From contig CALSSJ010000015.1 in assembly GCA_943788985.1 (NCBI GenBank), forward strand, positions 95,098 through 159,097: DNA of 64,000 nucleotides, in the 5' to 3' direction. This document shows, in pieces, positions 5,678 to 61,261 of the stretch. The notes beneath the pieces are model-generated. The model searched no databases and was not told the DNA's origin. It worked only from the letters and a program-made list of their open reading frames with translations. The translations under genes were made by a program, and so were the position numbers. Position 1 is the stretch's first letter. Each line of letters opens with the position of its first letter. The DNA is from an uncultured Lentisphaerales bacterium (GTDB lineage: Bacteria > Verrucomicrobiota > Lentisphaeria > JABSQK01 > UBA12247).

Positions 5678-6967
5678 TTAGCGTTGGCTGAGGGCTCCTC
5701 GGAGGGCGTTGACGGTGCGGTCTACGGCACCGCGCTGAGAGCGGACGACGTCGAGGGCAGCCTGGCCCAGCCGGGCGCGTTCTGCGGAATCCGCAAGTAG
5801 GTGAGCTAGCTGCTTTTGCAGGTCCGCAGTGTCCTGGACCTGGACCGCTGCTTTGGCGTCCAGCAGGAGGTGGACGGTGGCTCGAAAATTCCCCATGTGA
5901 GGCCCGAAGAGAATTGGCTTGGCCAGCGCGGCTGGCTCGATCACGTTCTGGCCGCCCATCGCGGGGCCAAGACTCTTGCCGACGAAGACCAAATCCGCTG
6001 CCGAGAGATAGGACAGCAGCTCGCCGGTGGTGTCGCCGAGAAGTACGTCGACTGGCCCCTTGGGCAGGCCCTCGCTGAGCCGGGCGAGTTTTTCGAGCCC
6101 AAGCTCTTCGATCAATTCTGGGGTGCGCTCGGCATGGCGCGGGACGATCAGTAGGCGCAGGTCTGGATGTGAATTTCGCAACTCTTGCCAGCAATGGACC
6201 AGCGCTGCCTCCTCACCTGCATGGGTGCTGGCACCGACCAGCAGAGTAAAGGAGTCGCCGAAGGCTGACTTCAATTGCTGGCGCAGGCCAGCCTGGGCCT
6301 CACTCGGGATGAGATCGTATTTCATCGTGCCGATGACGGTCGTTTTGGCCGCAAACTCGTCGAAGCGTCGCGCGTCTTCGACTGTTTGGGCGAGGACAAC
6401 GGTGACGTGAGAAAGCAGGTAGCGCACCACGCCGCCGAGGCGGAGAAAGCCCCGCAGGGAGTTGTCAGACATCCTCGCATTTGCGATGACCACTGGGACG
6501 CGTTGCGAACTCCGCAGAATCAGCTGGGGCCAGAGCTCGACCTCCATGATGACGAGCATGCGGGGCTCGATCTGGTCTAGGGTGCGATCGATTGCACTGG
6601 GCAGGTCGAGCGGCGCGTAGATGACCTCGCAGCCGTCTGGGGCGCGCTCGCGCGCGAGTCGCTGGGCGGTATTGGTGGTGGTCGAGATGACAAAGGGCCG
6701 GCGGCGATCCACCGCTCGCCAGGCGTCGATCAAGAGCAGCGCTGCGTTCAATTCGCCGACGCTCACTGCATGGATCCAGATGGGGCGTGTCAGGTCGCGC
6801 AGCTGTGATCGCTTGTGATGCGAGAAGTAGCCGCGGCGCTCGCCGATGGTCTCAAGCTCGCCACCACGACGCTGGAGCTTCCGCCGGTAGAAGGGCCAGT
6901 AAAGGGCGTATGCGACGGGGTAGAAGCAGGAGTAGAACAGAAGGAATAGCCGTGTGCCCAGACTCAT
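5678..6967 (-). CDS. waaA: 3-deoxy-D-manno-octulosonic acid (Kdo) transferase
   Basis: IWIHAVSVGE, EVELWP, NARMS, ASTHAGEE, IVPRHAER, DTTGEL, GGQNVIEPA. Confidence 0.93.
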   Translation of the reverse strand: MSLGTRLFLLFYSCFYPVAYALYWPFYRRKLQRRGGELETIGERRGYFSHHKRSQLRDLTRPIWIHAVSVGELNAALLLIDAWRAVDRRRPFVISTTTNTAQRLARERAPDGCEVIYAPLDLPSAIDRTLDQIEPRMLVIMEVELWPQLILRSSQRVPVVIANARMSDNSLRGFLRLGGVVRYLLSHVTVVLAQTVEDARRFDEFAAKTTVIGTMKYDLIPSEAQAGLRQQLKSAFGDSFTLLVGASTHAGEEAALVHCWQELRNSHPDLRLLIVPRHAERTPELIEELGLEKLARLSEGLPKGPVDVLLGDTTGELLSYLSAADLVFVGKSLGPAMGGQNVIEPAALAKPILFGPHMGNFRATVHLLLDAKAAVQVQDTADLQKQLAHLLADSAERARLGQAALDVVRSQRGAVDRTVNALRGALSQR

Positions 6968-7084
6968 CTTAGGAGAACTCTCAGTGCGAGCGTAAAAGCG
7001 ATTCGTACTGGTAGCGCCTGCCGGGCCTTGTGCTTAGAACGCGCTCGTAAATTACACGGGGCCTGGATGCACTATTGTATCACA

Positions 7085-8113
7085 CTAGCAGATGCGGGGG
7101 AGTTGCTCGCCGCGCAGGAGGTCGAGGACGCGAGTGGCGCCTAGCTCACTGGTGAGGGTAACGATCCCGCGGGGAGACTCGTTGACGGTGCCGATCAGGC
7201 AGGCCTCACAGCCGGCGTTGCGGAGTTCGCAAATTGCGGAGTCCGCAGATTCTGGGGCGACAATGGCGAGGAAGCGGCCTTCGTTGGCGAGATAGAGCGG
7301 ATCGAGGCCGAGGAGTTCGCTGGCGCCACGGACGGCGTCGGTGACGGGGATGGCCTGGGCGTTGAGCGAGAGTGAGCAGTTTGCGGAGTTCGCAATCTCG
7401 TTTGCAGCGCTGGCGAGGCCGCCGCGGGTGAGGTCGCGCAGGCAGTGCACCTCGACGTCGGAGGCGAGCACGGCTGCGATCGGGGCTGCGAGTGAGCAGA
7501 GATCGCTTTCGATGTTGGTCTCGAAGGCGATGCCTTCACGGGAGGCCATGACGGCGGTGGCGTGGCGGCCGAGGTCGCCACTGAGGATGAGGGCGTCGCC
7601 GGGACGGACGGAGCGGGGATGAATGTCGCTGCCGTGGTTGAGGGGGCCGATGCCGCTGGTGTTGATGTAGATGCCGTCGCACTTGCCGCGTTCGACGACT
7701 TTGGTGTCGCCAGTGACGATCTGTACGTCTGCTTCGCGGGCGGCGGTGGCGATGGATTCGATGATCCTGCGCAGCTTGGCCATGGGCAGGCCTTCTTCGA
7801 GGATGAGGCCGAGGCTGATGGCTTGGGGTGTGGCACCGCGCATGGCGAGATCGTTGACGGTGCCGAATACGGCCAGTCGGCCGATGTCACCGCCGGGAAA
7901 GAATATCGGCTTGACCACGAAGCTGTCGGTGGTGAAGGCGACGGGCCCGGCGATGTCCAGTGCTGCGGAGTCCGCATCGGCCTGCAGGCCGAGCCCGACG
8001 AAGGCTTCGGCAAAGACGGACTGGATGAGTTCGGCCATGAGCCGACCGCCACCGCCGTGGGCTTGGAGGATGGTGTCGCCGTGGTGGTGCTCGATGGGGC
8101 AGCTTAGGTTCAT
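7085..8113 (-). CDS. hypE: Hydrogenase maturation protein HypE
   Basis: [34 protein letters not shown]-terminal EQLPRIC. Confidence 0.96.
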
Positions 8114-9201
8114 AGCGCGACTCTCCGAAAGCGATAGTAGGCAGCGCAGGCGCCTTCATCGGAGACCATCGGCGCGCCCAGCGGGGAGTCGGGTGTGCAG
8201 CGGGTGCCGAAGGCGGTACAGGCGGTGGGTTTGCAGCGGCCCTGGAGGACCTCGCCGGCGATGCACTCGGCGGGTTCGGGGACGGTGCCGCCGTTGAGGC
8301 CAAAGCGTTGTTCGGCGTCAAACTGCGCGTATTCGGCGCGCAGCACGAGGCCACTCTGCGGGATCTCGCCAATGCCGCGCCAGGTCTGTGCAGCAGGCTC
8401 GAAGACGGTCTCGAGAATGGAGCGGGCGGTGGGGTTGCCGTCGTCTCGTGCGGATCTGGCGTAGCAATTGCGCACGGTGGCTTCGCCTGCTTCGAGCTGG
8501 CGCACGCACTCGAGGATGCCATCAAGAATGTCGAGCGGTTCGAAGCCGGTGACGGCAATGGGGACGTGGTAGCGAGCGGCGATGGGTAGGTACTCGGCGG
8601 AGCCGGTGATGGTGCAGACGTGCCCGGCGGCCAGGAATGCCTGGACCCGTGCTTCGTCATGACTGAGGATGGCTTCGATCGCTGGCGGGACGAGGACCTG
8701 AGAGACGAGGGCGCTATAGTTGGTCAGGTTCTGGCGGGCGGCTTGAAAGATGGCCATGGCGTTGGGCGGCGCGGTGGTTTCGAAGCCAATGGCAAAGAAC
8801 ACGATCTGGCGGTCGGGATTCTCGGCGGCGACGGTGAGCGCATCGAGCGGTGAGTAGACGATGCGCACATCAGCGCCCTGGGCGCGGACGGTGAGCAGGT
8901 CGGTCGCGGAGCCAGGGACCCGCAGCATGTCGCCGAAGGAACAGAGGATGACGTCTGGCCGCCGGGCGAGGGCGATAGCGGCGTCGATCTTGCCGAGCGG
9001 GGTGACGCAGACGGGACAGCCGGGGCCGTGTAGCAGCTCGATGCCGTCGGGCAAGAGGTCCTGAATGCCATAGCGCATGATGGCGTGGGTCTGCCCGCCG
9101 CAAATCTCCATGATGGTCCATGGCTGGGTTGCGGACGCCGCAATTTTTGCGGCGATTTTCTTGGCGGTCTCGCAATCTCGATACTCGTCCAGATACTTCA
9201 C
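8110..9201 (-). CDS. hypD: Hydrogenase maturation protein HypD
   Basis: [38 protein letters not shown]. Confidence 0.96.
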
Positions 9202-9443
9202 GGAAGCGGCTCCTGGAACTCCCCGAGCTCCTCAAAGGTGTCGAAGATGCGGGCGGCCTCGTCTTCGTCGATGGTGCTGATGGCGAAGCCGACGTGAACG
9301 AGCACGTGGTCGTCTACTTGCGCCTCGGGGGTAAATGCGAGATTGACGGTCTTGACGATCCCGCCGAAGCTGACGCGCCCGGCACGTAGCAGCGGGTCGG
9401 TCTCGGTGAGCTCAATAATTCTACCTGGGATGGCTAAACACAT
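9198..9443 (-). CDS. hypC: Hydrogenase assembly chaperone HypC
   Basis: MCLAIPG start, VLVHVGFAI. Confidence 0.95.
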
Positions 9444-11614
9444 GGCAGGCCTCGGGTTCGGGAAGCGATGAGTTGGCCCACGGCGATACCGCCATCGTTC
9501 GGGGGGACAAGCTGAGGCCAATGTGGCGTAAATCGGGCGTGACGCAAGCTGGCTATTGCCTCGGTAAGTAGCGAGCGGTTTTGGAAGCAGCCGCCGGAGA
9601 GGAGCACGTCTGGTAGCGCTTGGGCCTGAGCGATTTGGACGATGAGGGCGACGAGCGCCCGATGAAACCGCGCGGCGATGGTCCCAGTGGCGGTGCCGGC
9701 ATCGAGGTCGGCGCAGATCGCCCGGATGAGCGGCCGCCAGTCGGCTTGCATGCCGTCGAGCGTGATTGGGTAGGTGTCCTGACCAGGACTAATGGCGTGC
9801 TCCAAGGCCATAGCCGCATGGCCCTCGTATTCTACTTTTTTGATGAGGCCGATGAGGGCGCTGACGGCGTCGAACAGGCGGCCCATGGCACTGCATTGTG
9901 GCGAGTTTAGCCCGGTCGCTAGCTGGGTGTCGAGGATGTGAGTTGCGGACTTCGCAAATCCCAGACGGTGGCAGGGGAGGCCACAGCTTCGCAGCAGGGC
10001 ATAGGCAATACGGTCAGGGGATTGAATGGCTGCCTCGCCGCCGAGCAACGGGAATGGCCGCAAGGTGCTCACGCGCTCACAAAAGCGGTCGCGAATGACA
10101 AAGCTTTCGCCGCCCCAGATGGTCCCGTCATGGCCGTAGCCGGTGCCATCCCAGATGATGGCGAGGCAGGGCTGGGTGAGGCTGTGCTCGGCTACGCCGG
10201 CCCAGGCGTGTGCCTCATGATGCTGGACGCGGACGGTGGGCCTGTCGAGGCGCTCCGCCTCGAGGGTGGTGGCGTAGTCTGGGTGAAGGTCGCAGACAAC
10301 GGTGGGGTGGGCGGGAGCGATGCGATCTCGAAGCTGCTCGTGGGTCTGTCGGGTTGCCAGGGTAGTGAGGTCGCCGATGTGTTGGCTGAGGACGATGCGG
10401 TCACCGCGAGAAGCCGCGAGGGTGTTCTTGAGCTGGCCACCAAGCGCGAGCACGGGCCCGCCAGGTGGCGCGTGGAAGGGGATTGCCTGGGGATAGCCCC
10501 GGGCTCGGCGGATGAGGGTGGCCTTTTCGTCGATGACGATGACGATGGAGTCGTCGAGCGGCTCGACGATGTCGCGGTTGTGCATCAGCCAGGCGTCTGC
10601 GATCTGCGCAAGGCGCGCGATGGCTTCGTCGTTGCTGATGCAGATGGTCTCACCAGAGACGTTGCCGCTGGTGGCGATGAGCGGGCGTTGGAGTTGGTCG
10701 AGCAGCAGGTGGTGAAGGGGGGTGCAGGGAAGCATGGCGCCGATGTGGCTGGATGCGCAACGATGCCGCGGGCGTAGGAGGACGATGGGGGCGGCGGGTG
10801 AGCTGAGAATGGCGCGCTCGCTGGGGGTGACCTGGCAGTGGCGCTCGATGGCTGCTAAATCTGGATAGAGGATCGCCAGCGGTTTGGAGCTGCGACGTTT
10901 GCGCAGGCGTAGGCGCTCGACTGCCTGCGGGTTCTGGGCGTCGACCATGAGTTGGAAGCCGCCTATGCCTTTGAAGGCGAGGATCTGGCCAGCTTCGAGG
11001 GTGGCGCAGGCCGCCTCGAGTGGATTGCCGCCGTGGGGGCCCCGGTAGTGGAGGCTTGGCCCGCAAGTGGGACAGGCGTTGGTCTGGGAGTGAAACCTGC
11101 GGTCGGTGGGGCTGCGTGTTTCGCTCTGGCAAGCAAGACATTGGGCGAAGGCGGACATGGAGGAGGAGGCGCGATCCCACGGCAGTTCCAAGCAGATACT
11201 CTGGCGTGGCCCGCACTGGGTGCAGCTAATGAAGGAATAGCCGTGGCGCCGATCGGCAGGATTGCGGAGTTCGCAAAGGCAGGCGGGGCAGGTGGCGAGG
11301 TCGGGGGGGAGGTCGGTGGTGATGGCACCATCGGTGCTCTGGAGGATCCGAAAGTCGCTGGCATGGCGTGGGGGGGCGGGGGTGATGGTTACGCTGGTGA
11401 TGTGCGCGTGCTGCGGTGGTCGCTGCTGGAGGTTATCGGCAAACGCCCGCAGGGCAGCGGGCGCGCCCTCGACGGTAATCGAGAGGCCGTCTGCGGTGTT
11501 GCGCACTTGGCCACAGAGCTGGAGCTGGGTGGCTTGGGTGTGAATCCATGGCCGAAAGCCGACGCCCTGGACCACGCCAGTGACGCGGACATCGCAGCTC
11601 TGGATTTCACTCAT
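9434..11614 (-). CDS. hypF: Carbamoyltransferase HypF
   Basis: Acylphosphatase GVVQGVGFRP, Zn fingers, KGIGGF, TSGN, QHHEAH, DGTGYG, LSGGCFQN, PPNDGG. Confidence 0.95.
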   Translation of the reverse strand: MSEIQSCDVRVTGVVQGVGFRPWIHTQATQLQLCGQVRNTADGLSITVEGAPAALRAFADNLQQRPPQHAHITSVTITPAPPRHASDFRILQSTDGAITTDLPPDLATCPACLCELRNPADRRHGYSFISCTQCGPRQSICLELPWDRASSSMSAFAQCLACQSETRSPTDRRFHSQTNACPTCGPSLHYRGPHGGNPLEAACATLEAGQILAFKGIGGFQLMVDAQNPQAVERLRLRKRRSSKPLAILYPDLAAIERHCQVTPSERAILSSPAAPIVLLRPRHRCASSHIGAMLPCTPLHHLLLDQLQRPLIATSGNVSGETICISNDEAIARLAQIADAWLMHNRDIVEPLDDSIVIVIDEKATLIRRARGYPQAIPFHAPPGGPVLALGGQLKNTLAASRGDRIVLSQHIGDLTTLATRQTHEQLRDRIAPAHPTVVCDLHPDYATTLEAERLDRPTVRVQHHEAHAWAGVAEHSLTQPCLAIIWDGTGYGHDGTIWGGESFVIRDRFCERVSTLRPFPLLGGEAAIQSPDRIAYALLRSCGLPCHRLGFAKSATHILDTQLATGLNSPQCSAMGRLFDAVSALIGLIKKVEYEGHAAMALEHAISPGQDTYPITLDGMQADWRPLIRAICADLDAGTATGTIAARFHRALVALIVQIAQAQALPDVLLSGGCFQNRSLLTEAIASLRHARFTPHWPQLVPPNDGGIAVGQLIASRTRGLPCV

Positions 11615-11638: not shown

Positions 11639-12046
11639 TCATGCATCTTTTGCGATCTCCGCAATGACGGCCTGGGCGGCTTGGAGAACTGCTGGCGAGA
11701 GGTCTTGACCAAGGTCGAATGTCTGGCCTTCGATGCCGTAGAGGCGCAGGTCGGTAGGGAGTTGGCCGAGGGCGCGTAGACGCTCAATGGCCTCGGCAAT
11801 GTTGAAGTCGCCGGGGATGGTGGTTCGGTGGGCGTCGATGCGGTGAATAGTGCCCGGTTCGTGCTGAAGGGGCACGGCGTGTACCAGGCAGGCTTTTGGG
11901 TGGGCCTGTAGTAGCTCAAGGAGTTCTGTGCCCTCTGCAGAGACTTCGGTGACGATGAGGCCGGGCCGCAAGTGCGCGACGGCCCTAGCTAGGTAATGGC
12001 CGACACCATCGTCGCTGCGCAGTCTGTTGCCAACGCTGATGATCAT
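11639..12046 (-). CDS. Hydrogenase maturation protease-like protein (degenerate)
   Basis: GNRLRSDDGVG, LYGIEG, LSPAV; usual VDA reads VHA and the STH segment is absent. Confidence 0.8.
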   Translation of the reverse strand: MIISVGNRLRSDDGVGHYLARAVAHLRPGLIVTEVSAEGTELLELLQAHPKACLVHAVPLQHEPGTIHRIDAHRTTIPGDFNIAEAIERLRALGQLPTDLRLYGIEGQTFDLGQDLSPAVLQAAQAVIAEIAKDA

Positions 12047-12148: not shown

Positions 12149-13156
12149 TTACTGATCTGCATCGGGGGTGGAGAGTTCCTCGAGGACTTCGAGGTAGTTC
12201 GCGCGCTCGAAGTCGCCGGGGGTGGCCGAGGCGGATCTGCTCAGCAAGCCCTGGAGGCTTCGTACTGACTCGTGCCCATAGTCGAGAATCAGCTCCTCCA
12301 AGCTCTCGCGCAGGACGCGCACCTGATCTACGCCATGACGAAGCAGAGAGCCCGCCACCATGACAGCATCTGCACCTACGAGGAGATACTTCATGACCTG
12401 CTCGGCGGTTTCGACGCCGCGTCCGCCTGCGAGAGAGCAGATGATCATGTCGCGAAGCATCCCGATCCAGAGTAGCGGCAGGCGAATCTCATCGGGAGTG
12501 CTGGGGGCGAGATTGCGGTCGACCGATAGCCGGCTGAGGTCAATGTCTGGCTGGTAGAAGCGATTAAACAGCACGAGTGAATCTGCCCCTGCTGCATCGA
12601 AGCGGATTGCGATGTTCGCAAAGGATGTAAAGAACGGACTCAGCTTGAGGGCTATTGGGATATTTACGGCGCGCTTGACAGTCTTGAGGGTATCGAGATA
12701 CTGGCTCTCGATATTCACGGCGGGCTGGTCGGGGTCGGCTGCGACCCGGTAGAGGTTGAGTTCCACAGCATCGGCGCCGGCTTGTTCGATTTGTCTGGCG
12801 TAGTTTGCCCAGCCTTGGAAGGTGCAGCCATTCAGGCTGGCGATGATTGGGATGTCCACGGCCTGTTTGGCCGCGACAATGTGGGAGAGATACTGGTCTG
12901 GACCCACGGGCCTGGCGATGGGAGGCAGATACCTTGCTGCCTCGGCGGGTGCATTACCTGCGAGATCCAGGGCGCGGGCGACTGCGGCACGATCGCGCGA
13001 GACTTGCTCCTCGAACAGGGAGTAGAGCACGACTGCTCCGGCCCCTGCGTCCTCCATTTTTTTGATGCTGTCGAGCGAGCGTGAGAGCGGGCACGCCGAT
13101 ACGATGATCGGGCAGCTCAATTCGAGATTCATATAACGTGTTGAAAGATCGGTCAT
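12149..13156 (-). CDS. Dihydroorotate dehydrogenase-like flavoprotein
   Basis: GAGAVVLYSLFEEQ, IPIIASLNG, KLSPFF, LVLFNRFYQPDID; RBS AGGAG before ATG 13156. Confidence 0.88.
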   Translation of the reverse strand: MTDLSTRYMNLELSCPIIVSACPLSRSLDSIKKMEDAGAGAVVLYSLFEEQVSRDRAAVARALDLAGNAPAEAARYLPPIARPVGPDQYLSHIVAAKQAVDIPIIASLNGCTFQGWANYARQIEQAGADAVELNLYRVAADPDQPAVNIESQYLDTLKTVKRAVNIPIALKLSPFFTSFANIAIRFDAAGADSLVLFNRFYQPDIDLSRLSVDRNLAPSTPDEIRLPLLWIGMLRDMIICSLAGGRGVETAEQVMKYLLVGADAVMVAGSLLRHGVDQVRVLRESLEELILDYGHESVRSLQGLLSRSASATPGDFERANYLEVLEELSTPDADQ

Positions 13157-30104: not shown

Positions 30105-30133
30105 CTGTAACTAGAAATCTTTTTCTTGAGGTT

Positions 30134-34760: not shown

Positions 34761-34844
34761 TGGTGCCCGGGGCGGGATTCGAACCCGCACTCCTTTCGAA
34801 AGTTGATTTTAAGTCAACTGCGTCTGCCATTCCGCCACCCGGGC
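34761..34844 (-). tRNA. tRNA-Leu (anticodon TAA), CCA encoded
   Basis: GCCCGGGTGGCGGAATGGCAGACGCAGTTGACTTAAAATCAAC...GGTTCGAATCCCGCCCCGGGCACCA; long variable arm. Confidence 0.96.
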
Positions 34845-47930: not shown

Positions 47931-49463
47931 ATGGCACGCGGACGCAGCATCATTGGGTCCTTGCCAACGGACGGAAATCCGCAGGCGCCGCAGCCTCCTG
48001 CTGACCCGGAGCCTAAGCAGGGCGCCAAGGCGCAGAAGGGAAAGTCTACTAGCATCATCGGCTCGCTGCCGACTGCTGGTGGCGGTCCCGCGGCGCCTAC
48101 GCCAGCAGCCGAAGCGCCAGCACCGGCTCCCTTGCCGCCAGCACCGTCTCCACTGGCACCGGCCCCCGCGGCTTCCAAGCCCAAGGGGCGGAAGAGGAAG
48201 AGCGACAGCTTGATCGGAGATCTGCCCGGAGACCAGGCTTCGCCGTCGACTCCGGCCCAGGCGCAGCCCGCCGCGCAGACCAAGAAGCCAAAGGCAGCCA
48301 AAAGCGGCAGCCTGATCGGGTCCTTACCGGAGCCGCAAGAGGCAAAGCCCCCGCCAGCCCCAGCACCTGTACCCTTGCCTGCTGCGCAGACCCAGCCGCC
48401 GACCGCCCCGAAAGGCAGCAGTTTGATCGGATCCCTACCCGTGCCGCAAGGGATACCGGCTCCACCAGCTGCCGCCCCGCCCACGACAGTTTCGGCAGCA
48501 GAGCGGACAGAGGTCGAGAATCAGGCCGCATACGTGCCGATGCCTGCGGACATCGCACCAGAGCCGACGCCACATCGCTCAGCTGATCCCGCGTCCAGCA
48601 GTATCATTGGTGCACTTGTTGAGCGCGCGGCCCCTTCGCCCAATGATACCGGGACTTTCGCCGGGCTTCCCACTGCTGAGAGGGCCACGGTGCACGAACA
48701 CCATGACAGCGCGCGCGGCTTCCGTCTGATCGTCCGCAAGCGCAACGATGGGCCCAGGCCGCAGAGAGCAGTTCATTCTTTTACCTATCGGCAGGATCTG
48801 CGCGTGGGTGGAATGACGGACTGCGACGTCTACCTCCCCGAGGCAACTGGAGCTGTCACCTTGGGCGTAGGCCCAGGATCGATCGCCTTGGTCAAAATCG
48901 ATGCCCCTGCAGGAATCTTGCTCAACGGTCACCAGCCATTGGCGCTGCCAGCCCCGCTCAAGAACGGCGATGAGCTGATCTGGGGTGCCTACAGCGTTCG
49001 GCTCGCCATCCAGCTGCAACAGGTCGACGGTGAGAACCGCTCGCGCAGCCTGGTCGGTCGGCTCACCGTATTGTTGGTGTGCGCCGCCTTGGCCTGGCAG
49101 TTTGCGATGGTCGGCGGCTTGACTTGGGTCATCTTCGACAGAATGGAGTTGGGGCACGAAATCGCCCGCGCGCGCCTGGTGCACCGCATTGACGACATCA
49201 AGGGAAAGATCGCGACCAGCGAGCTTGACCAGGAAGATGTGCGGCAAGCCATGCTGCTAGAAGCCATGCGCGGAGAACTCAAGCATATAACCGGTTACCT
49301 GCGCGAGTATCGCTCCGATCTTAGTGATCGGCAGGTGGCGGACTTTAATCGCCAGCTCGCCGGTCTGCAGACCGTGCTCGAGGATCTAGACGCTGACACC
49401 TTTGGCTACCTCCCCGCCGTTCAGGCGCGGCCCTATTTGGAGCGGTTGTTACGCAGTGAATAA
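47931..49463 (+). CDS. Hypothetical membrane protein: Pro/Ala-rich tail with repeated S[IL]IG[SD]LP motifs, FHA-like domain, TM, helical C-terminus
   Basis: Five near-exact motif copies plus SIIGALV; LRVGGMTDCDVYL...LLNG...LKNGDELIWGAY; one long hydrophobic segment. Confidence 0.65.
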   Translation: MARGRSIIGSLPTDGNPQAPQPPADPEPKQGAKAQKGKSTSIIGSLPTAGGGPAAPTPAAEAPAPAPLPPAPSPLAPAPAASKPKGRKRKSDSLIGDLPGDQASPSTPAQAQPAAQTKKPKAAKSGSLIGSLPEPQEAKPPPAPAPVPLPAAQTQPPTAPKGSSLIGSLPVPQGIPAPPAAAPPTTVSAAERTEVENQAAYVPMPADIAPEPTPHRSADPASSSIIGALVERAAPSPNDTGTFAGLPTAERATVHEHHDSARGFRLIVRKRNDGPRPQRAVHSFTYRQDLRVGGMTDCDVYLPEATGAVTLGVGPGSIALVKIDAPAGILLNGHQPLALPAPLKNGDELIWGAYSVRLAIQLQQVDGENRSRSLVGRLTVLLVCAALAWQFAMVGGLTWVIFDRMELGHEIARARLVHRIDDIKGKIATSELDQEDVRQAMLLEAMRGELKHITGYLREYRSDLSDRQVADFNRQLAGLQTVLEDLDADTFGYLPAVQARPYLERLLRSE

Positions 49464-50427
49464 TCTCGAGATTCTCGGGCAGGTTTCCCAGCGGCACATC
49501 GCCGTTATCGGGGACATGATGGTGGACCGCTACATTTGGGGGAAAACCTCACGCATCAGCGAAGAAGCGCCCGTTCCCGTCGTCCAAGTTCAGTCGCGCA
49601 GCGAGACGCTCGGCGGCGCGGCCAATGTCTTGCGCAATCTCGCCTGTCTGGGCGCTCGCACCTCAGCATTTGGGGCCGTAGGCCAGGATCCGGGCGGGGA
49701 CTCATTTGCCGCGCTGTGCGCCGAGGATGGTATCGACACCCGTGGCATCGTGATCACCCCTGAGCGCCCGACCACGCGCAAGTCACGCGTCGTCTGTGGT
49801 CGCCAGCAAATGCTGCGGCTGGATGACGAGGTCACCAGCGCCATCGCCGTCGAGACCACGGCTGAGATCTGCGCACGATTCGAAGCGCTCCTTGCCGAAG
49901 ATCCGCCCGACGCGGTGATCATCGAAGATTACTGCAAGGGCTGCGTGAGCCAGGAACTGGCTGGTCACGTGGTCGCGATTGCGAACTCCGCAGGCATCGC
50001 TGTGGCGCTGGACCCGCATCCGGGAAACCGGCTGTGGGTCCGAGACCTAGTGTTGCTCAAACCCAACTGTGCCGAGGCCTACGCTATGGCGAACTTGCCG
50101 GCTGAAGCGCCGCTGGAGGCTGTCGTGCAGACGCTGCTCGAGCGCTGGCAGGCCAAGAATCTCTTGATCACCCTAGGCCGTCGCGGCATGGCCCTGGCCC
50201 AAGAGGACGGCACGCTTGCATACATCGCCACTGCGCCGCGGGAAGTGTTCGATGTCTCCGGGGCTGGAGATACCTCGATCGCTACGTTTGTGGCTTGCCT
50301 CGCCTCGGGTGCCTCGCCGTTGCAGGCTGCGAACATCGCAAACGAAGCCGGTGGCGTGGTCGTCACCCACGTAGGCACGGTACCGATCACGCTTTGCGAA
50401 CTCCGCAATGCCCTTGCCGTCAGTTAG
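49456..50427 (+). CDS. rfaE1: D-glycero-beta-D-manno-heptose-7-phosphate kinase (HldE/RfaE domain I)
   Basis: GDMMVDRY, RISEEAPVPV, GGAANV, DYCKG, VFDVSGAGDT. Confidence 0.9.
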   Translation: MNNLEILGQVSQRHIAVIGDMMVDRYIWGKTSRISEEAPVPVVQVQSRSETLGGAANVLRNLACLGARTSAFGAVGQDPGGDSFAALCAEDGIDTRGIVITPERPTTRKSRVVCGRQQMLRLDDEVTSAIAVETTAEICARFEALLAEDPPDAVIIEDYCKGCVSQELAGHVVAIANSAGIAVALDPHPGNRLWVRDLVLLKPNCAEAYAMANLPAEAPLEAVVQTLLERWQAKNLLITLGRRGMALAQEDGTLAYIATAPREVFDVSGAGDTSIATFVACLASGASPLQAANIANEAGGVVVTHVGTVPITLCELRNALAVS

Positions 50428-51268
50428 CCGCCGTATGTTTCTCGCGGCTGGTTCCGCTGCTAGCGCAGCCGCCGCAAGTGGAGGGGAGCGTCTGCCGTTC
50501 TTCCGCAATGCGGACTACCACGTGCGCGAACTGCCGAGCCCACGCGAAGCCCTGTTAGGCTACTCGGTTTATCACGAGTTTGATGTCGACCCACGCAAGA
50601 CTGCGGAGTCCGCTGCGAACTTCGCAGCCCCAACCTGGAACCTGGAAGTGCGCGGCAAGGTGGGCAAGACGCTTCGTCTGAATGCCGGTGACCTTGTCTC
50701 GATGTTCCCGCTCGAGGAGCGCGTCTATCGGTTTCGCACCATCACGGGAGTCGGCATGGTCGTCCCCTGGCTTGGCTTTCCACTCGAGTTGCTGCTTGAC
50801 CGAGCGGCGGTCAGCGCCGATGCGAAGTTCGCAACCTTCACCTCGCTTCAAGATCCAGAGCAGCTGCCGAACCAACGCCCGGACAGCGGCCTGGGACTGG
50901 ACTGGCCGTATCGCGAAAGTCTGACGCTCGCCGAGGCGAGCCACCCGCTCGCCTTTCTTGCCGTAGGCGTGTACGGCTATCGGCTGCCCGCGCATTTCGG
51001 CGCTCCGGTACGCCTGATTGTCCCTTGGAAGTACAGCTACAAAGGCCCAAATGCGGTAGTCTCGATCGAGCTTTCGAGCGAGCGCCCTGCCTCCACCTGG
51101 GAGACGGCACTGCCGCATGAATACGAGTTTTCGGGAAATGTTGATCCGGCTCGCCCGCATCCTCGCTGGGGGCAGGGAACCGAACGCCGCTTAGACCGCG
51201 CTGGCCGCTGGCGCTCGCTGCCATACAACGGCTACGGCAAAGATGTGCAGGACCTGTATCCGGGCTAA
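50408..51268 (+). CDS. MsrP/YedY-like Tat-exported protein lacking the Mo-ligand Cys
   Basis: Tat SRRMFL; LEERVYRFR, VPWLGFPL, WPYRESL, GAPVRLIVPWKY, NVDP..PHPRW, YNGYG. Confidence 0.8.
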   Translation: MPLPSVSRRMFLAAGSAASAAAASGGERLPFFRNADYHVRELPSPREALLGYSVYHEFDVDPRKTAESAANFAAPTWNLEVRGKVGKTLRLNAGDLVSMFPLEERVYRFRTITGVGMVVPWLGFPLELLLDRAAVSADAKFATFTSLQDPEQLPNQRPDSGLGLDWPYRESLTLAEASHPLAFLAVGVYGYRLPAHFGAPVRLIVPWKYSYKGPNAVVSIELSSERPASTWETALPHEYEFSGNVDPARPHPRWGQGTERRLDRAGRWRSLPYNGYGKDVQDLYPG

Positions 51269-51666: not shown

Positions 51667-51956
51667 AGGAATACGGCTCCGACAAGTGGCTCCACAGACT
51701 GTTGAATCAGAGCATCTGCGACCGAAGCTTCGATCGGCGCTACGCTCACCGACCACACGGCTACGATGACCAGGAGGCTGGCCGCCGCGGCGATGAATTG
51801 CCAGAGCAGCAGGTCAGGTTTTGCGGACTCCGCAACCGGCTGTTGCAGCGCCTTCAGGACGTCGTCCTCCCAGCCGGGCTGCGTGGGCGGTGGCTCGGAG
51901 GCCAGCTGCCACGCTGCGCGAAAGCGTGCCTCAGAATCAGGGCTATCGTTACTCAT
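51663..51956 (-). CDS. Putative anti-sigma factor
   Basis: Small single-TM protein overlapping the ECF sigma stop. Confidence 0.55.
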   Translation of the reverse strand: MSNDSPDSEARFRAAWQLASEPPPTQPGWEDDVLKALQQPVAESAKPDLLLWQFIAAAASLLVIVAVWSVSVAPIEASVADALIQQSVEPLVGAVFL

Positions 51957-52588: not shown

Positions 52589-52604
52589 GCCTACGGAAGG
52601 TTCA

Positions 52605-53888: not shown

Positions 53889-54259
53889 CGGCGCTGGTCA
53901 TCGTTGATCATGGAAGCAAGCGCGAGGCTGCCAATCGCATGCTGCAGCAGATGTGTGAGCTGGTGCTAGGTCAGGCCGCCGGCCGCTACATGTGCGTGCG
54001 TCCGGCACACATGGAATTGGCGGAACCCACTTTGGGCCAGGCGATCGATGCCTGCGTGGCAGATGGTGCGACCACGGTGATCATCAGCCTGCTATTTCTC
54101 GCGCCAGGCCGCCATGCGACCGCGGATATCCCGGCGCTGGTTGCGGAGTCCGCAACGGCTCACCCGGGGCTCGAGATCCACCTCGCGGAGCCATTGGGGC
54201 TGGACGCACTGCTCGCAGATTTGCTTATCAAACGCGCGGATCAGGCGCGTTCGGGATAA
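53885..54259 (+). CDS. CbiX/SirB-type short chelatase
   Basis: VDHGS, AHMELAEP, FLAPGRH, DIP, AEPLG. Confidence 0.88.
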   Translation: MTALVIVDHGSKREAANRMLQQMCELVLGQAAGRYMCVRPAHMELAEPTLGQAIDACVADGATTVIISLLFLAPGRHATADIPALVAESATAHPGLEIHLAEPLGLDALLADLLIKRADQARSG

Positions 54260-54285: not shown

Positions 54286-56424
54286 ATGCCGACGCCGATG
54301 CACAAGTTGATCGGACGCAGTATTTTACTATCAGGAACAGATCCGGAGCAGAAGCGCGAAGAGCTGCGCGCTTATTTTCACCGCACATTCACGCTCTACG
54401 AGCGGCTGTTCGAGACGCTGGTGGCGGAGGACGCCTATTACGAGCGGCCGGAGCCTTTGCGCCACCCGTTGATCTTTTACTACGGGCATACCGCTACGTT
54501 CTTTGTCAATAAGCTAATTTTGGCTAAGGCCATTCCGCAGCGGATTAATCCGCGGTTCGAAGCGATGTTCGCGATCGGGGTCGACGAGATGAGCTGGGAT
54601 GACCTGAATGACGCGCACTATCAATGGCCCCGCGTCGAGGACGTCCGGGCCTATCGCAACCAGGTGCGTGAGCTGGTGGACGCAGTGATCTCTGAGCAGG
54701 ACCTGTCGCTGCCGATTCACTGGGATACGTTTGTGCCATGGACGATCTGCATGGGGATCGAGCACGAGCGCATTCATCTTGAGACCAGCTCCGTACTGAT
54801 CCGGCAGTTGGACGTTCGCTGGGTGCAGCCGCACGCGGACTGGCCTATCTGCACGGACAGCGGAGAAGCTCCAGAGAACGTCATGCAGCCAGTTCCCGCC
54901 GGGACCGTCGATATCGGCAAACAGCGTTCGGATGGGCTCTATGGGTGGGATAATGAATATGGCACGCACCGGGCCGAAGTTGCGGAGTTCGCAGCCTCGA
55001 AGTACCTGATCAGCAATCAAGAATTCCGCGGCTTCATGGATGCTGGCGGCTACCAAACGCCAGAATGGTGGACCGAGGAAGGGCGCAATTGGCTCGCATT
55101 CAGCGGGCGCGAGTACCCGATTTTCTGGTTGAAGGATGGGGCAGGGAACTATCGCTTCCGGACCATGCTGCAGGAGATTGAGATGCCGTGGGATTGGCCG
55201 GCAGAGGTGAACTATCTCGAGGCCAAGGCGTTCTGTAAGTGGCGCGCCACCGTTACGGGGCACCTTGTGCGGTTGCCCACCGAAGATGAGTGGCACCGCT
55301 TGCACGACAGCTGTGGAATTCCGGATCAGCCGGATTGGCCAGAGACGGTCCCGTTCAATATCAACCTGGAGCATGGGGCCTCTTCGGTGCCCGTGAACCG
55401 CCATGAGCTGGGTGGTTTCTGTGACGTGATCGGCAATGTCTGGCAATGGACGGAGACGCCCATTCACGGGTTCGATGGATTCGAGGTGCATCCGCTCTAT
55501 GATGATTTCTCGAGCCCCACCTTCGATAATCAGCATAACTTGATCAAGGGCGGGTCCTGGATCGCCACCGGAAATGAAGCGACACGTTTGGGCCGCTATG
55601 CGTTTCGGCGGCACTTTTTTCAGCACGTCGGCTTTCGTCTGGTCGAAGGAGAGGAGCTGCCGCCTTTAGCCGAATTGCCGAACGAGGACTATGAGACCGA
55701 CGCCGCAGTTTCTCAGTACTGCGAATTCCACTACGGAGCCAGCTGCTTCGGCGTGCCAAATTTCCCGGAGGCGGTGGTTCAGCATGTGCTGGACCATCAC
55801 ATGGGCGGGACCGAGCGCGCGTTGGATCTTGGCTGTGCAGTTGGGCGGGGCACCTTTGAGCTGGCCCGAGTCTTTGAGCAAGCGACCGGCATCGATTTCT
55901 CGGCGCGATTCATTCGGCAGGCAATTTCTCTGCAAGAGCACGGCTTCGTCAGCTACGCAATCTGCGATGAAGGCAGTCTCACCAGTGCTCGTGAGTACAC
56001 GCTCGAGGATCTTGGGCTGCTCGGACTCGAGACCAAAGTGACGTTCTGTCAAGGCGATGCGCACAACCTGCGACCGCAATTTAGCGACTACGACCTGATC
56101 ACTGCGGTGAATCTGATCGACCGCTTGTACGAGCCACAAAAGTTTTTGGAAAGCCTGCACGAGCGGTTGCGCCCTGGCGGGACTTTGGCGATTACGTCTC
56201 CTTATACATGGCTGGAGGAATACACGGCTCCCGAGAACTGGCTGGGGGGCTTTACCCGGGACGGCGAGGCGGTCACGACGCTGGACGCCCTGCGCCAGAT
56301 TCTAAGCCCGCGTTTTGAGCCGATCACAGATCCGATCGATGTGCCGTTTGTGATTCGCGAGACGGCGCGCAAGCACCAACACACGGTCAGCCACCTCACG
56401 CTATGGCGGCGCCGCGATGTCTGA
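54286..56424 (+). CDS. ovoA: Ovothiol synthase: 5-histidylcysteine sulfoxide synthase plus methyltransferase
   Basis: LRHPLIFYYGHTATFFVNKL, GVDEMSWDD, HERIHLETSSVL, YGWDNEYG, RYAFRRHFFQHVGFR, SAM motif LDLGCAVGR. Confidence 0.93.
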   Translation: MPTPMHKLIGRSILLSGTDPEQKREELRAYFHRTFTLYERLFETLVAEDAYYERPEPLRHPLIFYYGHTATFFVNKLILAKAIPQRINPRFEAMFAIGVDEMSWDDLNDAHYQWPRVEDVRAYRNQVRELVDAVISEQDLSLPIHWDTFVPWTICMGIEHERIHLETSSVLIRQLDVRWVQPHADWPICTDSGEAPENVMQPVPAGTVDIGKQRSDGLYGWDNEYGTHRAEVAEFAASKYLISNQEFRGFMDAGGYQTPEWWTEEGRNWLAFSGREYPIFWLKDGAGNYRFRTMLQEIEMPWDWPAEVNYLEAKAFCKWRATVTGHLVRLPTEDEWHRLHDSCGIPDQPDWPETVPFNINLEHGASSVPVNRHELGGFCDVIGNVWQWTETPIHGFDGFEVHPLYDDFSSPTFDNQHNLIKGGSWIATGNEATRLGRYAFRRHFFQHVGFRLVEGEELPPLAELPNEDYETDAAVSQYCEFHYGASCFGVPNFPEAVVQHVLDHHMGGTERALDLGCAVGRGTFELARVFEQATGIDFSARFIRQAISLQEHGFVSYAICDEGSLTSAREYTLEDLGLLGLETKVTFCQGDAHNLRPQFSDYDLITAVNLIDRLYEPQKFLESLHERLRPGGTLAITSPYTWLEEYTAPENWLGGFTRDGEAVTTLDALRQILSPRFEPITDPIDVPFVIRETARKHQHTVSHLTLWRRRDV

Positions 56425-57433
56425 AGATCGCTACAGTCGGCAGGTGCGCTTTTCCGGAATCGGGGAGAGCGGTCAGCAAAAGCTGGTGGAGGCGTCGGTG
56501 CTGCTGGTGGGCTGCGGTGGATTGGGTACCGTGCTGGCGGACATGCTGGGCCGGGCGGGGATCGGCAAGCTGCACATCATCGACCGCGACTATGTGGAGC
56601 TCAGTAACCTGCAACGACAGATGCTGTTTACGACGGCCGATGCCACCGAGCGGTTGCCCAAAGCCGCTGCAGCCCGCGACCGGCTGGCTCTGATCAACCC
56701 GGAGATCACCGTGGAAGCCACCATCGGTGAGTTTTCGGCAGCCTGCGCGGACGAGTTGGTGGCGGATGCGTCGCTGGTGATCGACGGTACGGACAATCTT
56801 GGGACGCGGTATTTGATCAACGACGCCTGCGTCGCGGCAGGCAAGCCGTGGATCTATGGGGCGGCCGTGGGCAGCTCCGGAATGGCCATGTCGATCACGC
56901 CAGGGGCTTCGCCTTGCTTTCGCTGCATTTTCCCTGAAGCGCCCCGAGCCGGAAGCGCCCAGACCTGTGATACTGCGGGCGTGCTCTCGCCCATCCTGCA
57001 CCAGGTCGCTGCGCAACAGGCAACGCTGGCCTTTCAGCTGCTGACCGGTGACCACGGTCAGACCGGGCAGTTGTTTCAGTTTGATTGTTGGACCGGTCAG
57101 TTTGATCGGCTAGATCTGCGCACCGCGAAGAACCCAGAATGTGTGTGTTGCGGACTTCGCAACTTCGAGCATCTCGATGCAGTTGCGCGGGAGACCACGA
57201 CTTCGTTGTGCGGGCGGAATGCCATTCAGATTGCGCCGGCGACACCGGATGCGGTGGATCTGGCGGCCCTAGCCGAGCGGTTGCGCCGTTCTGGAAGAGT
57301 GACCGAGAATCCATACTTGCTCAGCTTCGCAGGGGATGGCGTGTCCTTTACGGTGTTTCGCGATGGCCGCGCCGTAGTGCATGAAACCACCGATGCTGTC
57401 GTGGCGAGAGGTATTCGAGATCGCTACGTCTGA
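56417..57433 (+). CDS. ThiF/MoeB family adenylyltransferase
   Basis: RYSRQ, GCGGLG, DRDYVELSNLQRQ, DGTDN, CFRC, CDTAGV. Confidence 0.92.
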   Translation: MSEDRYSRQVRFSGIGESGQQKLVEASVLLVGCGGLGTVLADMLGRAGIGKLHIIDRDYVELSNLQRQMLFTTADATERLPKAAAARDRLALINPEITVEATIGEFSAACADELVADASLVIDGTDNLGTRYLINDACVAAGKPWIYGAAVGSSGMAMSITPGASPCFRCIFPEAPRAGSAQTCDTAGVLSPILHQVAAQQATLAFQLLTGDHGQTGQLFQFDCWTGQFDRLDLRTAKNPECVCCGLRNFEHLDAVARETTTSLCGRNAIQIAPATPDAVDLAALAERLRRSGRVTENPYLLSFAGDGVSFTVFRDGRAVVHETTDAVVARGIRDRYV

Positions 57434-58438: not shown

Positions 58439-59999
58439 GACGGCCAAGCAGTGCTGCGATGTCCGCATTGCCTGTGGCTTCGCCGCGCTCGTCTTCTTCA
58501 CCTACGCCTATAATTATCATGGCGCGACGTGGAACCAGAACTCGCGCTTTGATATGGTCTTTACCACGGTTGAGCCGAGTTCGGCTGAGCAGCCGCTATT
58601 CGCGATCGATCGCTTTCTGCCCGCGCCGGACTTGGGCCTGAATACCGGCGATTGGTCGTACTACCCGGGAACCTGCCGCCAGACCGAGAAAGGCTGGCTC
58701 GGTGAAGGCGGGCATTACTATTCGAACAAGGCCCCGGGCCCGGCGTTGCTGGGCATCATCGCCTACGGAATCCTGCATCCGCTAGAGAGAAGCCTCGGAA
58801 TGCACCCGGATCAGCCGGGGGTGGCGCTGGCAAACGCCTACCTGATTCACCTCTGGGCCACAGTGTTGCCACTTACACTGGCCGCACTGGCGGCCTATCA
58901 GCTATTGTTGAACCTGACAAAGCAGGATCGAAAGCGAACCTTTCTCGGCATGCTGGCATTGTTCTGGGGGAGCCTGCTGTGGCCCTACGCGAGTCAGTTT
59001 TGGGGCCATGCGACCGCGGCGGCGTTCGTGATCATTGGCCTATGGGGCTTTATGAAGCCGCCCGGCTGGCTGCAGGCCCTATCCGGCTTGGCTATCGGCC
59101 TCGCTGTGCTCTGCGAATACTCGTGCGCGTTCTTCGTGATCGGCATGTGCGTGACGCGAGCCGTCCAGCGCGACTGGTGCAGCCTGGGGCTGCTGTTGGC
59201 AGGCGGGTTGATCCCGTTCTCCCTGTTTGCCTGGTATCACTGGATTTGCTTCGGAAACCCGCTGGCGGTGGCCAATCTCTACAACAACCCCGGGTTTCGC
59301 GATACAGGCGCTGTTGGTGGACTGTTCAGTACGGTCGATCCAGAGGCGATTGTGGGCCTGACGGTTTCGCCAGACAAGGGCTTGTTCCTGCTGATGCCGG
59401 TGCTGGGCATCGCGATCCCGGCGCTTTATCTGCGCGCTCGCGAACGGCTGGCCACTGCGTTGGAATGGCTGTGTGCCGGCACCATCGCAGCCTTCTTCAT
59501 TATGAACATCTCCTTCAACGGCTGGCATGGCGGGATGTGCATCGGGCCTCGCTATCAGATCCCGGTATTACCCGCGTACATTCTGCTTCTCGTCTTGCTT
59601 CCACAGCATCGCTTGGCGACTCTCGCACTGGCGACGGGCACCGCGATCTCAGTCTGCAACATGCTGGTTGTGACCTTAATCACGCCGCTCGGGTTCGACC
59701 GTTCGAGTACATCCCTGCAGGTCTGTTATGAGTCCGTAGGCCAGATGCTGTTCCAAGGAAAGAACATGCTGCATCCTTACCAGGGCCCGATTCGGCTGCA
59801 GGCTGTAGAGACGCGCTTGGGAGATTGGGAGTGTTTCAACTGGGGCGAGTTGGCCTCGCTAGAAGGGCGCAGCTCGGTGCTGCCGCTACTCTTTGTCTTT
59901 GGCGCCAGCCTCTACCTGCTCTGGCGCGATTCCGCGCGCGAACCGCAGGGAGAAAACGATAAGGCGCTTGAGACTTGTGATCAGGGGCATCCCGGCTAG
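58422..59999 (+). CDS. Polytopic membrane protein, possibly a GT-C-fold glycosyltransferase
   Basis: Many TM segments; NQNSRFD, YYSNKAPG, GWHGG..IGPRY. Confidence 0.6.
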   Translation: MGPIFKTAKQCCDVRIACGFAALVFFTYAYNYHGATWNQNSRFDMVFTTVEPSSAEQPLFAIDRFLPAPDLGLNTGDWSYYPGTCRQTEKGWLGEGGHYYSNKAPGPALLGIIAYGILHPLERSLGMHPDQPGVALANAYLIHLWATVLPLTLAALAAYQLLLNLTKQDRKRTFLGMLALFWGSLLWPYASQFWGHATAAAFVIIGLWGFMKPPGWLQALSGLAIGLAVLCEYSCAFFVIGMCVTRAVQRDWCSLGLLLAGGLIPFSLFAWYHWICFGNPLAVANLYNNPGFRDTGAVGGLFSTVDPEAIVGLTVSPDKGLFLLMPVLGIAIPALYLRARERLATALEWLCAGTIAAFFIMNISFNGWHGGMCIGPRYQIPVLPAYILLLVLLPQHRLATLALATGTAISVCNMLVVTLITPLGFDRSSTSLQVCYESVGQMLFQGKNMLHPYQGPIRLQAVETRLGDWECFNWGELASLEGRSSVLPLLFVFGASLYLLWRDSAREPQGENDKALETCDQGHPG

Positions 60000-60090
60000 G
60001 TTGCACTGTTTTAGCAATAGGGCTGAACGGCCTGGCCTGCGATCGGCCAGCTGCACGCTCCTACTCACTGCTTCGGAGCATGAATCGACG

Positions 60091-60375
60091 ATGGTGGATA
60101 CAAAAGCAAACTGCGACAGGCACGGGGAGCAGGAATTAGCAATTGCCTGCATTCATGTGTGCCGATCTCTGGACAGCCGCGACGATGTCGGCTTTTATTG
60201 GGACCCCGACTCGAACGGTGCCCGGCACGATGCCTGGTGTCACGCTTGCGAGCAATGGTCGCTGGCCAACCCAGACGAATCGCCTGAGGTCTGGATGAAG
60301 GTTACAGAGTTTCAATTTCTATGTGTTCGGTGTTGGGACGAGGCCAAAGCGCGCTATACTCAGCCGAAATCTTGA
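60091..60375 (+). CDS. Small Cys-rich hypothetical protein (putative Zn-binding)
   Basis: CDRHG, CIHVC, WCHACE, LCVRCWD. Confidence 0.6.
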   Translation: MVDTKANCDRHGEQELAIACIHVCRSLDSRDDVGFYWDPDSNGARHDAWCHACEQWSLANPDESPEVWMKVTEFQFLCVRCWDEAKARYTQPKS

Positions 60376-60431
60376 TCAGCTAGAAAAACCTGTCTTAAGC
60401 CAGGGGATTTTATCCTTTAGATCCTGTCTCT

Positions 60432-61261
60432 GTGCGTGGTTGTGAAGAAACCGACAGAATATTGCGTCCGCATTTTCGATGCGACCAGACGGGCGCTCGA
60501 CGCTGGAGTCAACTACATCGACGTTTCCCCGCTTACGAAGTGACCAAGGCCAAGACCGTCCTCGGAAAGGCTCTCAAAACCGTAACCCGCGATCGCTACA
60601 TCCTGGCGACCAAGGTTGGCCAGTACGATCACTGCGTCTTCGACTTCTCCGCCGAGCGCGTCACCCGTAGCGTTGAAGAAAGCATGCAGCGGCTAAACGT
60701 AGACTACATCGACCTAATTCAGGTGCATGACATCGAATATGCGGAGCCCGCACTGATTCTAGGCGAAACCGTACCCGCCCTCCAGAAGCTCAATCAAGCT
60801 GGGAGGATTGGGCACATCGGCATTACCGGCCTGCCGTTAACCGGGCTGCGCAAGCTGGTGGCCGAAGCAGGCCACGGGGCAATCGAGACCATCCTATTCT
60901 TCTGCCCCTACACGTTGCAGGATGACGCATCGCCGGTATCCATGGGCTTGCACACCGAGCGCGGGGCGCCGGACTTGGCCCCCGTCCAGCCCAACCGTGC
61001 AGAAGACCGTGCGCCAGGCGATTGCTTCCTGCCAGGCTGCTGGCATCAACATCGTCGAGCTGGCGGTTCAGTAATCCGTTGCAAATCCAGACATTGCAAC
61101 CACAGTTGTTGGCTCAGCGAACCCCGATAATATGCTGGCGAATATTCGCTACGCGCAGCCCCCGATCGATGAAGACCATCTGCAGTTCGTGTGCGAGGCA
61201 CTTGAGCCTGTGCGTAATTGAAACTACACCCGCGGACTCGCCCAAAACCGTGATACCCTGA
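60432..61261 (+). pseudogene. Aldo/keto reductase (L-galactose/L-fucose dehydrogenase-like), frameshifted
   Basis: GVNYIDVSP, ILATKVG, FDFSAERVTRSVEESMQRLNVDYIDLIQVHDIE, spread over different frames. Confidence 0.8.

Follow-up and report, generated by a model that had tools for sequence, protein, structure and literature searches.

A short DNA word made of two inverted arms held five base pairs apart is iterated far above chance in the genome of an uncultured Lentisphaerales bacterium (G000; 4.58 Mb on 48 contigs, 83.6% complete), mostly within genes, and is real, maintained and, as far as searched, undescribed. The word came to notice in a 64,000 nt stretch of this genome, called the window below, as the 13-mer TGCGRASTYCGCA (the strict pattern). 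All 30 exact copies that the original prediction had claimed are present in the window, whereas 100 dinucleotide shuffles never yielded more than 1 (mean 0.02). The 15 one-mismatch copies it listed also start where it placed them, an unlisted one at 29072 brings the number to 16, and the 19-mer at 26802 has the letters reported. Gene calls made with a home-made dicodon caller place all 30 exact copies within coding sequences, as had been proposed, and NCBIfam agrees with the gene names given (waaA, hypE, hypF, asnB, mutM, acpS, nnr, pnp and ovoA), with waaA and nnr scoring below the curated cut-offs. The G+C content of the window, put at about 62%, is 59.5%.

Across G000 there are 850 exact copies, found on 47 of the 48 contigs and so not confined to one, while order-3 and order-5 Markov models, for which TGCG-N5-CGCA sites were masked during training, predict 0.87 and 1.35. 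Called genes hold 766 of the 850, and synonymous-codon shuffles that preserve every protein yield just 5–19, so that the proposed genome-wide signal at the level of DNA is borne out. The coding copies use all three reading frames (540, 115 and 111), and the peptides AEFA, ANSA, AESA, CELR, CGVR and RSSQ are over-represented in the proteome. The high coding fraction, together with the lack of a Y1_Tnp match in G000, agrees with the earlier view that the word is not an intergenic repetitive extragenic palindromic (REP) element. Literature searches on the word itself, on Lentisphaerae repeats, on spaced palindromes, and on the class Lentisphaeria with SMC/ParB returned no description of it, judged by title and abstract start; supplements and most subscription journals lay outside their scope, and a genome-wide motif survey could list the word in a paper's supplement.

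The conserved signal is the pair of arms, and is wider than the 13-mer pattern first described. G000 carries 1,749 copies of TGCG-N5-CGCA (one per 2.6 kb), compared with 142–205 for each of the other spacer lengths from 0 to 13, and 594 copies of TTGCG-N5-CGCAA, compared with 4–16 for other spacers; the relaxed pattern is written here as (T)TGCG-N5-CGCA(A). The commonest spacer in G000, GAGTT (424 copies), is asymmetric and also leads between genes (48 of 166). In genus g18 the same arms enclose a loose spacer sequence, and 240 kb of G028 (a near-complete, motif-rich member; 94% complete, 550 sites) hold 58 sites at spacer 5 against 0–2 elsewhere. The spacer sequence varies by lineage while the arms stay constant. 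Of the dyad around a 1-bp centre that had been proposed, the palindromic arms stand, but the invariant part ends with them. The strictest positions are two GC pairs (GC-N7-GC), where one-mismatch variants number 0–15 against 850 exact copies. GC-N7-GC is not enriched outside the full word, near-matches in G000 occur at or above background and are not depleted, and flanks around G000 sites show no conservation past about 2 bp. Stem-type covariation is absent at the inner positions (5/9 pair, 0.36 with 0.41 expected; 6/8 pair, 0.62 with 0.58 expected). Because the spacer length is fixed, the inner positions lack pairing covariation and the same arms recur in tandem operator-like phage sites (see below), a dimer that reads duplex DNA can fairly be inferred, and a fixed spacer of free sequence with arm centres 10 bp apart would be expected of a dimer reading one face of the duplex. 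The earlier proposal of a dimeric DNA-binding protein is in this respect a reasonable one, with the two arms, and not the 13-bp dyad, as its probable site.

The survey of related Planctomycetes-Verrucomicrobia-Chlamydiae genomes suggested with the original prediction revealed the word in other Lentisphaeria. At a threshold of at least 15 strict copies, 45 of 301 class genomes, in 18 families, are motif-bearing, while the reversed word, used as the control, reaches 11 copies at most. No genome of the large families f6, f7, f11 and f15 has more than six strict copies, rich and poor genomes coexist within families f9, f14, f16, f24 and f29, and the relaxed 15-mer adds further carriers, such as G018 (364) and G124 (365). 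No carrier is found among 167 phylum genomes outside the class, none of which exceeds 25. Eight named records have 153–650 copies, plus one titled Victivallis sp. (321); the depositors' titles of the rich records read Lentisphaeria, Lentisphaerae, Victivallales, in one case Verrucomicrobiota and in two Kiritimatiellota. Outside these Lentisphaeria-type records the 13-mer occurs only as small REP-like families (26 copies in G302, 13 in G316), with the exception of G306, where four of seven copies lie on one 1.7-kb contig. G302 and G316 are a Planctomycetota and an Anaerolinea genome, in which the 13-mer forms head-to-head pairs inside longer REP-like repeats or hairpins (L004, L014, L018-L021, L028 and L030 in G302; L031 in G316). 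The motif-poor G009 has 94 copies of the reversed control word, and the two that were viewed (L462:12303 and 19735) are the two orientations of a single hairpin-like repeat, which probably represents a REP-like family. A search of metagenomes turned up no close relatives of G000, giving, among 80, two near-identical loci followed by identities of 54% or less.

Alignments show that the sites arise by substitution, not insertion. In HypE (78 aligned homologues) and HypF (25–27), homologues have residues, not gaps, at six sites, the second HypF site lying in an indel-prone stretch, and the gap rate is 0–3% at 104 sites in core orthologues. Paralogue alignments are noisier, with gap rates of 2–7% at sites and up to 9% just after them, compared with 2.7% overall. 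At the hypF site at 11263 an Asn stands where 23 of 27 homologues have Asp. Over all sites compared, residues match those of the orthologue in a motif-free genome less often than expected (290 of 880, against 415), which fits both placement at tolerant positions and forced changes.

Once formed, sites tend to be kept. The 52 gene pairs compared between G028 and G034 cover 66.8 kb at a third-position identity of 0.535, and in them both arms are retained at 11 of 19 orthologous sites, where 1.3 would be expected (p 7e-9), and at 11 of 20 in the reverse direction. Third positions within arms are identical in 53 of 68 cases (0.78), against 217 of 459 in lone half-sites (0.42–0.53; p 2e-6). Spaced controls at orthologous positions number 0–1 each, too rare for comparison. 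Against G025, arms are kept at 8 of 17 and 8 of 10 sites, which overlap the G034 set and are not independent of it, and in a motif-free sister genus at 0 of 10. About 40% of sites turn over at the G028–G034 distance. Within the species, two other assemblies have a perfect word at 9130 (run X16, on one contig at depth 4.3, and locus L124), and strain variation over 20 kb amounts to 30 variable places, one of them within a site, which is too low for a test.

Density depends on the kind of gene. The 272 single-copy orthologues have 4.27 sites per 10 kb compared with 3.26 over all genes, and among them density falls from 5.9 to 2.6 per 10 kb as protein identity rises. Density also climbs with G+C (rho 0.55). 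Strict sites occur at 2.23 per 10 kb in singletons and at 0.67 in families of at least 20 paralogues. When density is mapped against islands, a check proposed with the original prediction, the genes of an 80-kb sulfatase/hydrolase island on contig C12 prove free of sites, as are both 16S loci. Intergenic density (1.25–1.88 per 10 kb) is not above that of the genome (1.86), and G000 shows no excess between convergent genes or at gene ends. Spacing within genes is random, while counts are over-dispersed (mean 3.1 and variance 7.0 in 10-kb bins; 1.48 in core genes), and pair distances up to 20 kb decay smoothly on the 48 contigs of G000. On the 2.73- and 2.40-Mb contigs of G028, the 64 and 23 sites among those listed are uniformly distributed (Kolmogorov-Smirnov p 0.91 and 0.89).

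The same arms are found in phages. A Mu-like phage record of 28 kb, G319, carries 12 sites by the strict pattern and 14 by the relaxed one, several of them read in frame within repressor-like and early genes. When viral sequences were scanned with two 15-mers, which gave 60 and 36 loci, G319 was the sole rich record; nearly all loci have a single site, and one other has two. The G319 fragment (L363, L364) encodes Gam and a D12 adenine methyltransferase, and also has a PAPS-reductase-like and a patatin-like gene. Like G032, it avoids CTAG and CAGCTG, and a search of IMG/VR for relatives of its capsid found none. At least 121 phage loci (among L240-L360), from many unrelated phages, have TTGCG-N5-CGCAA sites in tandem. 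By our reading, many of these appear to flank promoter-like sequence near XRE genes, and the XRE repressors beside the tandem pairs form a recognisable group (alignment A1). The tandem sites show an arm and spacer geometry that XRE-type proteins evidently use, without naming the reader in the bacteria.

Candidate readers were profiled for presence and absence over 64–71 class genomes chosen by their motif counts; kin among these are not independent, and because many are incomplete and the first-pass search was loose, an absence means 'not found' and is not proven. The transposase domain Y1_Tnp (RAYT) is present in 55 of 64 genomes regardless of the word, and has no match in G000, G005 or G002. 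Methyltransferases of the C5 (PF00145) and N4/N6 beta (PF01555) classes have none in G028 or G199, two of the five genomes searched, in a search that left out D12-class and type I enzymes. G000 has two HTH_3 proteins: an XRE-receiver protein (C39:8012), which has domain-level matches only in four motif-rich genomes, and one that by our reading precedes a HipA-like gene. The phage repressor profile A1 has its best match (E 1e-8) in poor genomes and none in G000, with weak matches in rich and poor alike. An HNH-AP2 protein has five other near-full-length homologues among 27 matches, too few for 18 families given the limited reach of the search. A second long ComEC (930–1214 codons, 32–49% identical; Table 1) is present in 5 of the 34 motif-bearing genomes and in none of the 37 motif-poor ones, but as G000 and G028 are without a copy it is not the reader; two of its genes adjoin an unnamed gene (about 670 aa) that both loci share. 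A site pair of the autoregulatory kind was not seen beside any common gene. Among chromosome proteins, ScpB is matched in 0 of 71 class genomes (9 of 14 controls), the SMC hinge and MukB in 0 of the 5 searched, and ParB_N, mostly weakly, in 23 of 71, without tracking the word; ParB_N is unmatched in G000, G028, G034, G032 and the single-contig G150, and there is hence no Noc in G000 or G028. These profiles suggest that Lentisphaeria may segregate their chromosomes without condensin or ParABS.

Our preferred reading, to which we give somewhat less than an even chance, is that the word marks DNA as 'self', with a dimeric protein as its reader and biased uptake or recombination as its means of spread. 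In it, (T)TGCG-N5-CGCA(A) would be a duplex-DNA site for a dimeric protein of part of the Lentisphaeria, with one subunit on each arm and the arm centres about one helical turn apart. DNA bearing the word would be preferentially taken up, spared or recombined, with the bias acting either where DNA enters at the cell surface or within the cell. Long-term bias of this kind would fix point mutations that create the word where the protein tolerates them, and slow its loss, as the pattern of origin and retention suggests. Core genes would fill up, and recent islands, rRNA and the most constrained genes would stay poor, which is the distribution seen; a resident phage would carry the word too, as one does. 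We lean towards the self-tag reading because this distribution matches the account of uptake sequences under molecular drive (PMC7811141). The presence of ComEC, PilM and DprA in motif-rich genomes also speaks for a self tag.

Several points tell against a self tag. No reader was found among the candidates profiled, and the competence genes are found in rich and poor genomes alike (ComEC 67/71, PilM 66/71, HHH_3 53/71). ComEC has no match in G000 (84% complete), and ComEA is not evident in G000, G028 or G034. The sole HHH_3 match of G000 (C31:127424-130649) is a proline/acid-rich 650-aa protein with a C-terminal HhH, encoded beside MglA- and MglB-like genes, and by our reading is not a ComEA; comparable HhH frames are present in several members of the class. 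The near-complete G028 and G034 each have a single HHH_3 match, which lies in a frame of 709 codons, a length that would suit Tex. Uptake sequences are not known to be palindromic. Retention at orthologous sites would fit direct selection on a structural site equally well.

That last point leads to the main rival, in which the sites would be landmarks kept by selection on chromosome structure. Their reader would be an abundant, sequence-specific dimer that organises the chromosome by bridging or compacting DNA, in a class without the usual condensin or ParABS. We consider this unlikely, though worth serious attention. The ScpB, SMC hinge, MukB and ParB_N profiles are in keeping with it, as are the uniform distribution on both large G028 contigs, the retention at orthologous positions and the structural role proposed for HIP1, the highly iterated palindrome of cyanobacteria (PMC5861425). 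The word is nevertheless not required in place of condensin and ParABS, because motif-poor lineages, including the single-contig G150 and G035, also lack matches to these proteins. The genes of 80 kb of contig C12 are site-free, counts are over-dispersed and density tracks gene class, not position. Since within-gene spacing is random and densities vary widely between lineages, drive would fit better than a fixed architectural need. A specific form of such an organising system, so far undescribed, is slightly more doubtful: a dimer, perhaps derived from a phage-repressor-like fold, that would act at more than 1,000 coding sites, with resident phages carrying the sites too, in a class seemingly without SMC-ScpAB, MukB and chromosomal ParB.

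The fact that the strictest positions are the GC-N7-GC pairs recalls the methylation and repair ratchet published as a model for HIP1 (PMC4390886), in which an orphan methyltransferase would mark part of the word and biased mismatch repair would turn near-matches into the full word. Such a ratchet is improbable here, as GC-N7-GC is not enriched outside the full word, near-matches are not depleted, and the two methyltransferase families lack matches in G028 and G199 in the search described above. The phage loci with tandem sites near XRE genes would suit sites through which an XRE-type transcription factor controls a regulon, as at the phage operators that share these arms. This is very improbable for a word with 766 of 850 sites in genes, evenly along them and without intergenic excess; the phage repressor profile is unmatched in G000 and weak elsewhere in rich and poor alike, and the tested HTH_3 protein of G000 has no full-length match in four motif-rich genomes. 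Least probable of all, marginally behind the regulon, is that the sites are what remains of a mobile element or REP family dispersed by a RAYT transposase, for all that the 13-mer sits in longer hairpins of REP-like families in the distant G302 and G316. Such relics are disfavoured because the sites originate by substitution alone; there is no insertion at sites, no flank conservation past about 2 bp and no pairing covariation, and Y1_Tnp is unmatched in G000, G005 and G002 and elsewhere occurs regardless of the word.

Over a thousand copies kept in ordinary genes point to a putative protein that reads the word as a 'self' tag or a chromosome landmark, and the two-arm, fixed-spacer design indicates the kind of reader to seek. 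Few groups are known to have hyper-iterated genomic words for which a reader is proven or suspected. Lentisphaeria offer natural controls in the rich and poor genomes of the same family and in the spacer dialects on constant arms, and because of these, drive by DNA exchange and selection on chromosome structure can be tested directly against each other. As condensin and ParB seem to be missing from the class, more hangs on the structural reading. Copies of the word in the window are given in Table 1.

Table 1. Copies of the word in the window, and loci of the second long ComEC in other genomes.
Feature	Position	Context
Exact copy	6504..6516	in waaA-like gene (5678-6967 -)
Exact copy	7219..7231	in hypE, reads CELRN
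Exact copy	7235..7247	in hypE, 16 bp from copy at 7219
Exact copy	7382..7394	in hypE
Exact copy	7964..7976	in hypE
Exact copy	9944..9956	in hypF
Exact copy	11263..11275	in hypF; Cys, Arg, Asn where homologues mostly have Arg, Phe/Leu, Asp
Exact copy	18986..18998	in GT4 glycosyltransferase gene
Exact copy	20696..20708	in asnB-like gene
Exact copy	20899..20911	in asnB-like gene
Exact copy	21717..21729	in unnamed 381-aa gene
Exact copy	25369..25381	in mutM
Exact copy	25730..25742	in mutM
Exact copy	26573..26585	in polyprenyl synthase gene
Exact copy, perfect 3-bp flanks (26802-26820)	26805..26817	in polyprenyl synthase gene
Exact copy	27879..27891	in acpS
Exact copy	28614..28626	in nnr
Exact copy	29376..29388	in nnr
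Exact copy	33781..33793	in lipoate-ligase-like gene
Exact copy	43060..43072	in ABC ATPase gene
Exact copy	43291..43303	in ABC ATPase gene that also holds copy at 43060
Exact copy	45231..45243	in pnp
Exact copy	49980..49992	in rfaE kinase gene
Exact copy	50395..50407	close to end of rfaE
Exact copy	50614..50626	in msrP
Exact copy	50821..50833	in msrP
Exact copy	51822..51834	in 97-aa gene call (51663-51956 -)
Exact copy	54142..54154	in chelatase-like gene
Exact copy	54981..54993	in ovoA
Exact copy	57149..57161	in moeB/thiF gene
One-mismatch copy	5783..5795	arms intact
One-mismatch copy	9130..9142	in hypD, arms intact; polymorphic at base 9137
One-mismatch copy	11651..11663	arms intact
One-mismatch copy	12608..12620	arms intact
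One-mismatch copy	20757..20769	outer arm base changed
One-mismatch copy	25960..25972	outer arm base changed
One-mismatch copy	29031..29043	arms intact
One-mismatch copy	29072..29084	inner arm base changed; not listed in the original prediction
One-mismatch copy	37922..37934	outer arm base changed
One-mismatch copy	39671..39683	arms intact
One-mismatch copy	41817..41829	arm position 2 changed
One-mismatch copy	48545..48557	arms intact
One-mismatch copy	50328..50340	arms intact
One-mismatch copy	50602..50614	last base common to exact copy at 50614
One-mismatch copy	58455..58467	arms intact
One-mismatch copy	60740..60752	arms intact
Second long ComEC	L452:6350-9994, L453:3910-6744, L454:93-2906, L455:5821-8967, L456:411-3203

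The first 5,700 nt of the window (1-5700) are motif-free and contain an IS91-family transposase (about 59-1396) and a sulfatase fragment (5034-5642), together with a 642-bp stretch repeated at C15:70438 and a 125-bp stretch with copies on several contigs; another sulfatase fragment is found at 30101-30664. Two adjacent short frames at 15884-16572 are probably one gene split by an assembly error, all four sequencing runs showing one extra G at base 16137. The PNPase (44500-46953) has 817 aa, with extra S1-like sequence past the usual length, and a tRNA gene at 34764-34844 (-) is the sole Rfam match in the window. A plasmid BLAST search with a site-bearing stretch gave gene-level or short chance matches only.

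Among known systems, the sites of matS/MatP, SlmA and Noc are 13–16-bp palindromes bound by dimers, often within genes; there are tens of them, either restricted to the terminus region or kept out of it. The analogy with them drawn in the original prediction fails on both position and number, the word occurring in hundreds to thousands of copies and uniformly along G028, with no ParB-family match in G000 or G028. XRE or lambda-type phage operators have identical TTGCG/CGCAA arms and spacer length, but are tandem intergenic pairs with A/T-rich spacers, whereas the bacterial sites are single, coding and genome-wide, and the repressor group is unmatched in G000. REP/RAYT systems share with the word a short repeated palindrome, even the same 13-mer in hairpins of two distant genomes; unlike them, the word is coding, single, not inserted and without hairpin covariation, in a genome with no RAYT match. 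HIP1 (GCGATCGC) and the alternate HIPs of cyanobacteria are, like the word, palindromic, far above chance and coding in all frames (PMC4390886, PMC5861425, PMC13756078), and HIP1 is likewise kept at orthologous sites and patchy within its clade. For HIP1, too, the choice between a self-tag and a role in chromosome structure is unsettled, and three decades have not brought an explanation (PMC13756078). HIP1 is a contiguous octamer, while the Lentisphaeria word, in a different phylum, consists of two arms with a fixed 5-bp, lineage-variable spacer (13–17 bp in all), and it occurs in two motif-rich genomes (G028 and G199) without a match to the two methyltransferase families searched. The uptake signal sequences (USS) of Pasteurellaceae and the DNA uptake sequences (DUS) of Neisseriaceae resemble it in arising by point change, in being sparse in new segments, rRNA and constrained genes, and in leaving a mark on the proteome (here AEFA, ANSA, AESA and CELR), as described in PMC7811141. 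USS occur at about one per kb, compared with one per 2.6 kb for the word, which has no convergent-gene excess. Unlike USS and DUS, which are not known to be palindromic, the Lentisphaeria arms are a perfect inverted pair, and only the G000 spacer is asymmetric. The word works like HIP1 and the uptake sequences but fails a defining test of each, being neither a contiguous palindrome like the former nor built on a non-palindromic core like the latter.

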